Below, piece after piece: positions 6,001-9,000 of a stretch of 64,000 nt of DNA. The stretch lies in IMG/VR virus record IMGVR_UViG_646311923_000012. One strand, written 5' to 3'. Source of the stretch: a virus (taxonomy: Duplodnaviria > Heunggongvirae > Uroviricota > Caudoviricetes). The position numbers were made by a program. Position 1 is the first letter of the stretch; each line of letters begins with the position of its first letter.

Positions 6001-9000
6001 CATCCACAGGTGAAAACGTCGTGGGGTTGTATTTTGCCCCGTTGCTCAGAATGGCCGTTTTCCCCGCATTTTCGCCTGTATACCCGCTGTCCCAGTTGCT
6101 CTTCAGTTTTTTCGCATTTTCTTCCGTAATACTGCCGGGGATCTCAATCACCCCGGACGGCCTGCCGCCATTTCTGAAAAAAGACGTCGAATTTTCCTGA
6201 ATATGATGCCCCTGCGTGGCCGCCAGCCCGGCGGCATACACCGGCGGCAATCCTATAAGCGGATGAAAAAAACAGTTAAACCGGTCGTGGATCACTTCCC
6301 GGGCAGGCACCGTCACCGCCTCCGTGATCCCGCAGTTCCGGTCCGGCGTGATGCGGTAGAACACCTCGCCGTCATCCGCCACCAGAGGTTCAACCCGGCT
6401 CCAGTCCAGAATACGCAGTTCTTTGATCTGCCCCCGGGCATTACGGATTTTCAGCACCACCGTATTGCCATGACGCAGTTTGGCGTTCAGCCACAGTTCA
6501 AAAAACTGGATGCGGTTCTGCTGGGCGTTGGGACGACGACAGAGGCGGGCAATATCCCCCCGGCGCGTTTCCCTGCGTATCCCATGCGCATCCGTCTGCA
6601 TAAGACGCAGCCGCATTTTGGCGATATCCTGGGATATCAGCGAAATACATGCAAACACCGCATGAAAGGAGAGGACGGCTTCAGGATCGGCTTTCACGCC
6701 CTGCTGCCAGGCGCCGGAAAAGGGCTCAGCCACCGCCTGAAACAGGCTGGTCCAGCCCGCCTCTCTTACGTCACGTCCTGATTTCTGGTTTTTTCGGGTT
6801 CGCCGTAAAAGGTTCCACATTCGCCATGCTCCGCATCACGTTTCTTTTTCTGACCTGCCGGACGTCGCACCGTGATGTACTCCGCCTTTCCCAGGCGAAC
6901 CAGCACCTCCGCACACGGCTGTGCCACATCACGGATATCCCCGGCCCGGGCATCATGCGTGCCCTGCAGATATCGGATCTTTGCCATAACCTGTTACGGG
7001 AGGCGCACGCCTCCCGTCCTCCTTATCAGACTCAGCCGCCGGACGCACTGCCGTAGTTCACTCCGGTGATCACCGCCACCGCCGCAGTACGGCGACGACG
7101 CCAGTTGATCCAGCGCTCCGCACGGATGGCCACGCTGCCTGTCTGGAACATGGAAACCAGCTCCACCGGGGACGGCGTGGTACTGTCGCCGGTCGGCTCA
7201 GACTGCATTTCCAGTGATGCCTCGCGGGACATATCCACTGCCACGCCGCCGTCATCCGCCAGATAAATATCCGGGGCATTCACCAGCACCAGCTGGTCAC
7301 CCACGTACTGGGAGACAATCACCGGCAGCCCCTGGAAGGAGCCACCCAGCAGGGTCATGTCCGGGTATTCCTTCTGACCCAGCGCATTTTTACGCATGGA
7401 CAGTGCCAGGGCATTGGTGCTGGACATCAGCCAGACCGCACCGGTGGGCTGCAGGTTTGCTGCCACAAACTGTCCAAACGCAGCCTCTGCATCCGCATCC
7501 GGGTTACCGGTTGATGCCGTGCCCTTCACATCATGGGTGATGGACGCCGGGGAGACATCTGCCACTGCGGCTTTTTTCGGGTCCACAAAGTCTGTATCCA
7601 GACGCGCCACCACCGCTTCCGCCAGCGCATTACGGACCAGTGCATCAGCAGCCGGACTGGAAAAACGGATCAATTCTTCCGTCAGTACCGCAATGGCCGA
7701 CACCTTCGCATGACTGAAGGTGATGGATTCAAAATCAAACTTCGTCAGGGGTTTTGCCTTACCCTCACCCACCCAGCCGGCAGCACCGCCGGACACCTGG
7801 GCGTGCACACGGATATTGAATGGCACCTGACGAAGTGCAGGGATCCCGCCCTGACCAAATCGCCCGATAATGGTCTGCGGACGCAGGTAATCAATAAAGT
7901 CCTGTGCGTATTCCTGATATTCAGACAGGCTGCCTGCTCACTGCGGATCCGTGGTGGTCCCCGCGCCCACTGCCGATTTCAGGACATGATGCAGACGACT
8001 GTCATCCGGATACTGACGACGGGCCACTTCCAGGGCTTCAGATCGGACGCCTTTAGCCGCAGCCAGCGATTTGGCAAAGCGGGCGAAGCCAATCCCCTTA
8101 TCCAGTTTCTGCTCCACACGGATCACCGGCGCAGAAGCCACCGCGGCCACATTCCCGTTACCGGCCTGTTTCACCGGCTGCGCCGTGGCGGCCTTACCGG
8201 CTTCCAGTTCACGCAGGCGCTTCAGGTGCGCATCCACCTGACGGATTTCCGCTGCGGTGTTGTCGTAATGCTCTTCCTCCTCCACATCCAGCGTGCGCCC
8301 TTCCTCTGCGGCTTTGGTCATGACCTCCTCAAGGGAGGCTGCCAGCGCTGCACGCTTGTTTTCAAAACTTTTAATCTGTTCGCCAATATTCATTATGGTC
8401 TTTTCCTTATGAAAAACGGTTGTTGACTGTGCCGCAGCGCCGGCAGAAGATGCGATTTTCACCACCGGTTTCCGGTTGCCGGACGCGGCAGAAAACGGGC
8501 GGTCGTAAGATTTAATGGTCCGGATGGTGCATTCCGCATTCGCGGGCACGGTGACGGCAGACACCTCCATCAGTTCCCAGCGCAGAAAATGCAGTCCGCC
8601 TCCGTCCAGAAAGGTGTATTCATGGGGACGGAAGCCCACGGACAGCCCCCTGACCAGCCCGGTCTTAATGGCAGCCCAGGCCTCATCCAGCCGGGCTGCC
8701 ATCTGGGAGGGCATCCCCGGCTCCGGCTTCACCAGCATTGCCGTGATTTCCAGCCCTTCCCTGACCCGACGCACCGTACACTGGCCTACAGGGCGGGAAT
8801 GGTCATGCTGCCAGAGAAACGGGATCGTACTGCCAAACTCAGCCCCCTCCGGCTCCAGGATGTCACCATCCCGATCCGGAGAAGGCGTTGACGCAATCCC
8901 GGTGATCACCCGTTCATCCTCACTGAAGGATTTCACCGTCAGCAGGGAACAGGCCCGTTTAAGAGTCACATCAGCCTCCTGAAAATAAAAAAACCGCCGC

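Follow-up and report, generated by a model that had tools for sequence, protein, structure and literature searches.

The prohead protease and the major capsid protein of phage HK97 are the products of two genes, gp4 and gp5, each with its own start. The two proteins belong to Pfam families PF04586 and PF05065, and gp5 has a delta domain, a helical region resembling a scaffold that lies ahead of its capsid body. The gene described here combines the same two families and the same kind of helical region, and it comes from a family in which protease and capsid form one polyprotein. Specifically, phage 2851 (EP2851_53, Pankowvirus) and phage BP-4795 (ORF56, Marienburgvirus, "putative major head protein/prohead protease") carry the same 1938-nt fusion gene, with 98.7% and 97.5% identity, respectively. 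Both phages are Stx-converting and inducible, both were deposited as complete phage genomes, and both genes are a single uninterrupted CDS. Prophages of other Enterobacterales genera commonly have this ~645-aa architecture of PF04586 and PF05065, at 73–77% identity. Literature searches for a characterised protease–capsid fusion of the 2851/BP-4795-type family, or for its cleavage site, gave nothing specific.

Two further systems are relevant to a capsid gene that contains a stop codon. In phage Qbeta, programmed readthrough of UGA by Trp-tRNA extends a capsid-related protein, yielding A1; there, the stop is conserved and required. Unlike the Qbeta stop, the one considered here is a rare derived allele in a family that otherwise bears TGG, and no supporting signals accompany it. 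The second system is the set of lambdoid prophages of E. coli O157 Sakai, which carry point and IS lesions in head genes alongside near-identical morphogenesis modules (PMC2669165). For two Sakai prophages, Sp9 and Sp15, others apparently complement the defects in the head (Asadulghani et al. 2009, PMC2669165). The strain and the lesions differ from those analysed here.

Here, we examine a stretch of 64,000 nucleotides (IMG/VR virus record IMGVR_UViG_646311923_000012), hereafter the window, in which such a fusion gene is interrupted by TGA. With a probability of about 90%, we read this locus as a capsid gene that became a pseudogene recently, in a non-Stx lambdoid prophage of STEC O45:H2/O103:H2-lineage E. 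coli. The ancestral gene would have encoded one 645-aa polyprotein consisting of an HK97-type prohead protease, a delta-like scaffold, and an HK97-fold major capsid protein. A G-to-A transition that turns the Trp344 codon from TGG into TGA would end translation after 343 residues, and what remains would be a protease-plus-scaffold fragment without the shell-forming domain. Any particles would then require either rare misreading of UGA by Trp-tRNA or a compatible intact capsid from another resident prophage. This is ordinary prophage decay, already annotated as such by PGAP, with no special mode of expression.

A Fusion Gene with One Internal Stop

Translation of the gene in a single frame gives 645 codons and one internal stop (Table 1). 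The initial annotation had described two ORFs in the same frame, parted by nothing but the TGA and linked by 37 sense codons, and our translation reproduces its coordinates. The mutated base is window position 7938, the third base of Trp344, which reads A on the coding strand and T on the plus strand. The gene sits between the large terminase and portal genes, in the order common to the window, 2851, and BP-4795: terS, terL, capsid fusion, small ORF, portal. An overlapping plus-strand ORF, 7533..8426, is without a Pfam match and is treated as spurious.

Table 1. Coordinates of the interrupted gene, its signals, and neighbouring head genes in the window.
Feature	Position	Strand	Basis or description
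Disrupted protease–scaffold–major capsid fusion gene	8969..7032	minus	1938 nt, 645 codons, one internal stop
Premature TGA, codon 344 (Trp/TGG in intact alleles)	7940..7938	minus	Alignment with intact alleles
5' ORF, 343 aa, GTG start at 8969, still translatable	8969..7938	minus	Peptidase_S78 plus helical/coiled-coil scaffold-like region
Stranded 3' ORF, 264 aa, GTG start	7826..7032	minus	Most of the HK97-fold capsid body
37 sense codons from the stop to the first in-frame GTG; AGSLSEYQEYAQDFIDYLRPQTIIGRFGQGGIPALRQ segment	7937..7827	minus	Strong cross-genus conservation
Shine-Dalgarno AGGAGG of the genuine GTG start at 8969	8980..8975	minus	Anti-SD duplex -10.3 kcal/mol
terS	10691..11254	minus	Head module
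terL	9033..10694	minus	Head module
Portal	5456..6820	minus	Head module

Both halves of the interrupted frame carry recognisable domains. PF04586 (Peptidase_S78, Caudovirus prohead serine protease) matches residues 48–152 (E = 8.4e-08, 33 bits; Pfam cut-off 21), and PF05065 (Phage_capsid) matches residues 386–635 in the same frame (E = 4.2e-14, 53 bits; Pfam cut-off 24.2). As the Phage_capsid match begins only at profile position 38 (it spans 38–279/280), the domain lacks its N-terminal part. Between the two domains, residues 201–257 align in a PDB sequence search to the N-terminal residues 7–63 of a solved 385-aa "major head protein", which is consistent with a scaffold segment of the delta type that links the protease to the shell domain. 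The capsid matches from PDB sequence searches were weak throughout (9d9w, E = 1.4e-05; 9gyi, E = 0.0025). The architecture is thus that of the fusion family, but in place of an uninterrupted ORF of ~645 codons the window has a TGA at codon 344, and so its gene is a pseudogene derived from the family rather than a functional member of it.

We placed W344 on HK97 gp5 via the shared Pfam profile, an approximate mapping. Residues 113–381 of gp5, whose sequence is validated by a 191.8-bit Pfam match, correspond to profile positions 2–280. By this route, W344 would fall at roughly gp5 residues 107–111, a few residues into the mature N-arm, and the 37-codon segment after the stop would be the predicted N-arm of the mature capsid protein. 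The stop would then part the scaffold from the shell domain, leaving the latter without its predicted N-arm. Two other approaches contributed little to this placement. An hhalign comparison of the family alignment with HK97 gp5 produced no meaningful alignment (probability 0.13), and an AlphaFold2 model of an intact homologue, built on a 20-sequence alignment, was set aside for the placement of W344 (mean pLDDT 41.4, pTM 0.26).

Origin and Distribution of the Stop

Chance is not at issue for this stop, because the intact form of the gene that bears it is known; the question is one of origin, not of statistics. A single nucleotide separates the window gene from its counterparts in O103:H2 strain 20151001 and in 2015C-3163, which match it at 1937 of 1938 positions: gene nucleotide 1032 (window 7938) is G in those strains and A in the window. 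Both counterparts read TGG at codon 344 and specify a 645-aa product that PGAP records as the intact protein WP_024246490.1, named "phage major capsid protein". The same protein, with Trp at codon 344 and an uninterrupted 645-aa CDS, is found in UTAK-6. In all three strains the neighbours of the gene are those of the window, and in UTAK-6 the prophage and the locus are also the same. Indeed, the UTAK-6 prophage is the closest relative overall, with 99.5% identity over 37 kb, an orthologous locus, and matching gene order; its copy likewise has TGG at codon 344 in an intact CDS. That one TGG-to-TGA change had inactivated a fusion gene was among the proposals of the initial annotation, and two genomes that differ from the window gene at position 7938 alone, and read TGG there, bear it out. 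An intact allele separated from the window's by the stop-creating substitution alone points to a pseudogene.

Comparison with functional phages and with more distant homologues leads in the same direction. In a 121-nt alignment of the window and 2011C-4251 with phages 2851 and BP-4795, a single column differs, TGA in the former pair and TGG in the latter; the context is otherwise identical, and both phages encode Trp at codon 344 within a single 1938-nt CDS. The 61-mer containing the TGA is absent from all 61 phage records that match the site, so the initial annotation's own counter-scenario, in which related functional phages share the stop and start their capsid gene separately, did not materialise. 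W344 is invariant in aligned homologues of 73–97% identity, including those of other Enterobacterales genera (Salmonella, Enterobacter, Klebsiella, Serratia, Pantoea, Kosakonia, and others), and it lies within the strongly conserved motif GAGTTTDPxWAGxLxEYQ. Taken together, the intact alleles one base away, the rarity of TGA, its absence from phages, and the invariance of the Trp identify the stop as derived: a recent point mutation, G to A, in the codon of a conserved Trp, and confined to a narrow lineage.

The exact TGA 61-mer occurs in seven complete E. coli records (2011C-4251, SJ7, O45:H2 FWSEC0003, 2000-3039, 99E2750, UTAK-2, and UTAK-4) and the exact TGG 61-mer in 1043; of 1184 complete genomes that match, 7 have the TGA allele. 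This allele is restricted to a narrow lineage, and the TGG relatives nearest to it are O103:H2. Beyond complete genomes, the exact 343-aa product is encoded on 67 contigs of public assemblies, and NCBI names strain DEC11C for the identical product. An index lists this product in 75 collection blocks, independent SRA-run assemblies among them. We re-read the site in 10 places, namely eight draft or SRA contigs and the two copies in 2011C-4251, and found TGA in each. The window's gene recurs unchanged in seven of the eight contigs; in the remaining one, the sole differences are two N calls.

These occurrences bear on the notion that the real genome reads TGG and that an error of sequencing or assembly produced the stop. 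Single-base errors do happen, and the region is a multi-copy repeat in TGA-bearing genomes. However, the identical allele is found in seven complete genomes from different laboratories and countries, and dozens of independent draft and SRA assemblies carry it, with TGA in every contig that was re-read, which means that it is not an assembly error. We regard the chance of an artefact as practically nil.

TGA alleles are 99.8–100% identical to one another and have acquired almost no further mutations. This near-absence fits recency; it is no proof of freedom from selection. PGAP already labels the identical sequence a pseudogene with an "internal stop".

Expression of the Capsid Domain

The pseudogene reading supposes that the capsid part of the frame is left stranded. 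Two ways of expressing it had been raised in the initial annotation, re-initiation and readthrough, and neither gains support from start codons, Shine-Dalgarno pairing, RNA folding, or Rfam. The first canonical in-frame start after the stop is the GTG at 7826, which lies 114 nt, or 38 codons, downstream, and the first in-frame ATG is codon 515. Near the stop, all frames together offer one start codon, a GTG that overlaps the stop and is out of frame. Thus, nothing is available for translational coupling in the capsid frame. The same annotation had called the GTG of the downstream ORF weak and without a good Shine-Dalgarno sequence. The calculated anti-SD duplexes agree: -3.1 kcal/mol upstream of GTG 7826 versus the far stronger pairing at the real start, GTG 8969 (Table 1). 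The 3' ORF is probably without translation signals of its own.

A protein started at GTG 7826 (Val382) would also be incomplete, losing the 37 conserved residues that follow W344 along with Pfam profile positions 1–37. This bears on a second interpretation, in which the stop is a functional gene fission that yields the protease–scaffold and the capsid body as two proteins, the latter by re-initiation at GTG 7826. A downstream ORF of 264 aa (or 246 aa) containing PF05065 is indeed among the predictions of gene callers, and HK97 itself has separate genes for protease and capsid. However, the window does not reproduce the gp4/gp5 arrangement: its downstream ORF has neither a ribosome-binding site of its own nor the scaffold nor profile positions 1–37. 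The frame breaks downstream of the scaffold, within what is predicted to be the capsid N-arm, rather than at the junction of protease and scaffold; with W344 mapping into the N-arm, the stop is not at a natural domain boundary that would mimic the separate genes of HK97. The distant, SD-less GTG with no in-frame ATG before codon 515, a product that would lack the highly conserved N-arm segment and the fused scaffold, and the fact that such a split is not seen in any functional phage record among the 61 matching ones make fission extremely improbable.

Signals that might promote readthrough were also sought. Folding of the 76 nt that begin with the stop is no more stable than that of shuffled sequence (MFE -16.8 kcal/mol, equal to the shuffle mean; z = 0.01), and Rfam reports neither a SECIS element nor any other relevant RNA family at E <= 1. 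The stop has the same flanking sequence as the TGG codon of intact alleles, which means that no signal has arisen near it. Selenocysteine insertion and other recoding were rejected, given the lack of RNA structure, the lack of an Rfam SECIS, and a stop that is not conserved among functional relatives.

Residual Activity and Rescue

In E. coli, UGA leaks more than the other stop codons, and some full-length wild-type protein is therefore expected from the interrupted gene. Reporters in E. coli K-12 give UGA readthrough of ~2% at 37 C and ~4% at 25 C, a result of Trp-tRNA competing with RF2 (PMC10570021). Since misreading by Trp-tRNA restores the wild-type polyprotein, the allele is better seen as a severe hypomorph than as an absolute null.

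The leak could in principle matter biologically, if Trp-tRNA read the UGA often enough to give meaningful numbers of heads, in which case the prophage would be attenuated rather than dead. The K-12 reporter rates, the identity of the inserted residue with the wild-type Trp encoded by TGG in relatives, and the fact that the allele survives, with no additional decay, both across a clade and in two prophages of the same genome are all compatible with this. Against it, the stop has no stimulatory structure or special context, its flanks are the same as in TGG alleles, and matching phage records lack it altogether. A head shell needs hundreds of capsid subunits, so percent-level synthesis should cut the yield drastically; moreover, the truncated protease–scaffold fragment would be in large excess. 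We infer that normal head assembly is unlikely under percent-level synthesis combined with this excess of truncated product, and we consider a biologically meaningful leak improbable. On the preferred reading, that of a pseudogene, the prophage would be unable to build its own heads at useful yield, and the initial annotation's first option, that it is defective for particle formation, would be a reasonable one.

Rescue could come at most from percent-level readthrough by Trp-tRNA or from the capsid of a co-resident prophage. By analogy with Sakai, supply of the capsid in trans seems the more realistic of the two. In O157 Sakai, prophages with defective head genes are still packaged, apparently with proteins from the near-identical modules of others (PMC2669165). 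TGA-bearing complete genomes have two or three copies of the capsid gene each, and another prophage's capsid protein could mask the defect of the prophage in the window. In a search aimed at the third copy, TGA-bearing genomes were not seen among the 60 TGG 61-mer matches listed, nor among the matches listed for a query with the BP-4795 allele.

Prophage Context and Movement of the Lesion

On the minus strand, the prophage takes up the window from position 1, where some of its tail genes lie, to ~37.4 kb, where its integrase lies (36373..37392). Three clusters of substitutions, at ~1–3.5 kb, 11 kb, and 22 kb, set it apart from the otherwise nearly identical prophage of O45:H2 FWSEC0003. Unlike phages 2851 and BP-4795, the window's prophage has no stx. 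At the stx position, downstream of a Q-like gene, it instead carries three tRNA genes, a TerB-family gene, and a DUF3927 gene, followed by nanS-p. PGAP flags other defects in this prophage, for example a portal "frameshift", which are probably not real. The capsid stop may be the main lesion among the head genes within the window.

For annotators, the consequence is that 8969..7032 should be called one pseudogene, not two genes. For gene mobility, a non-Stx prophage that is probably unable to make its own heads matters less than its effector-carrying neighbour and the strain's other prophages.

In 2011C-4251, TGA is present in two different prophages. One adjoins potC and has a Rac-like early region; the other is the orthologue of the prophage in the window. 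The two share late regions with 99.66–100% identity over ~17 kb but differ in the early regions, which are divergent or unrelated. TGA in two prophages with shared late regions indicates that the lesion travels with a morphogenesis module that is copied or exchanged between resident prophages. UTAK-2, too, has two 100% matches to the gene, ~200 kb apart, which brings the genomes with the allele in two different prophages to at least two.

We also considered whether the stop is a tolerated or even favoured allele, with readthrough regenerating the polyprotein and the abundant 343-aa fragment co-assembling with the heads of co-resident phages built from the same module, and so poisoning or throttling them. 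If so, the presence of TGA in two prophages of one genome could be explained, as could the persistence of the allele in the O45:H2/O103:H2 clade without further mutations. We hold this to be a very long shot. Under the pseudogene reading, the locus serves as an example of one lesion on a morphogenesis module common to two prophages of one genome, and a subgroup of O45:H2/O103:H2-lineage STEC can be conveniently recognised by the TGA allele, a lineage marker of one base.

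The Capsid Allele and the Resident Prophages

Escherichia coli strain 2011C-4251 (NZ_CP027388.1) harbors two prophages approximately 200 kb apart, L004 and L007, the latter being the orthologue of the first prophage in the window. Their early regions are unrelated or divergent. A late (head-tail) module of approximately 17 kb is common to both, at 99.66-100% identity, and the same TGA that breaks the capsid fusion gene lies inside each copy. The nonsense capsid allele has spread between resident prophages, either by duplication or by conversion. The UTAK-2 genome shows the same arrangement, again with about 200 kb between the two prophages.

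In the window, a second lambdoid prophage directly adjoins the first, in tandem (about 37.4-64 kb). Comparison with the UTAK-6 relative reveals lambda-type head genes, specifically those for terminase, portal, S49 peptidase, decoration protein, and an E-type major capsid, together with tccP2, a partial espV, and sodC. Because the capsid protein of the second prophage belongs to a different family from that of the broken capsid fusion, complementation of the latter by the former is unlikely.

Independent Lesions among Relatives

We compared lesions in the FWSEC0003 and 2011C-4251 prophages (L005 and L007) with those in the UTAK-6 prophage (L006), in regions equivalent to about 27.5-28.2 kb and 36.4-37.4 kb of the window. 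The former two have a partial DUF1627 gene and a truncated integrase, whereas the UTAK-6 prophage carries frameshifts in its antirepressor, ParD, and exonuclease genes. The integrase ORF of the window is full length (339 aa). Prophage decay runs independently in each lineage.

The Portal Gene and Its Neighbors

In every close relative, PGAP annotates the portal gene as "frameshifted". The label stems from a homopolymer that is either G5 or G6. The window and phage BP-4795 have the G5 form, in which the terminating TGA of a 454-aa portal shares bases with the ATG of an ORF of 407 aa lying downstream. Phage 2851 has the G6 form, in which both are joined as a single protein of 859 aa. Among complete E. 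coli records, the exact 61-mer of the G5 version occurs in 340 and that of the G6 version in 7. Thus, the split form is the norm and is probably not a defect.

The ORF following the portal gene contains tandem copies, 98% identical, of a 54-aa unit (…PRDGRDYDPxVLxxAVNDAVANIPxPADGKSxTPDDVRPMLEQMVKEAVSHIP…). Copy number probably differs among phages; ORF59 of BP-4795 specifies 461 aa, compared to 407 aa in the window.

Features of the first prophage (window coordinates)
Feature	Position	Strand	Details
Portal 3' end	5456..5475	minus	G-run 5475..5471; ATGA overlap 5459..5456
Tandem repeat	4702..5234	minus	162-nt unit x 3.3, inside ORF 4236..5459
nanS-p-type SASA carbohydrate esterase ORF	15935..17872	minus	645 aa
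Three phage-borne tRNA genes	18951..19202	minus	Arg-tct, Arg-tcg, CAT-anticodon tRNA

The stx Position

In Stx phages, tRNA genes lie upstream of stx, and the three tRNA genes of the window occupy the corresponding place. They are followed by TerB-family and DUF3927 genes, however, rather than by stxAB. The CAT-anticodon tRNA is assigned to Met by ARAGORN and, in relatives, to Ile by PGAP. Finally, the length of the esterase ORF matches exactly that of the 645-codon capsid fusion by coincidence; the two are separate genes.
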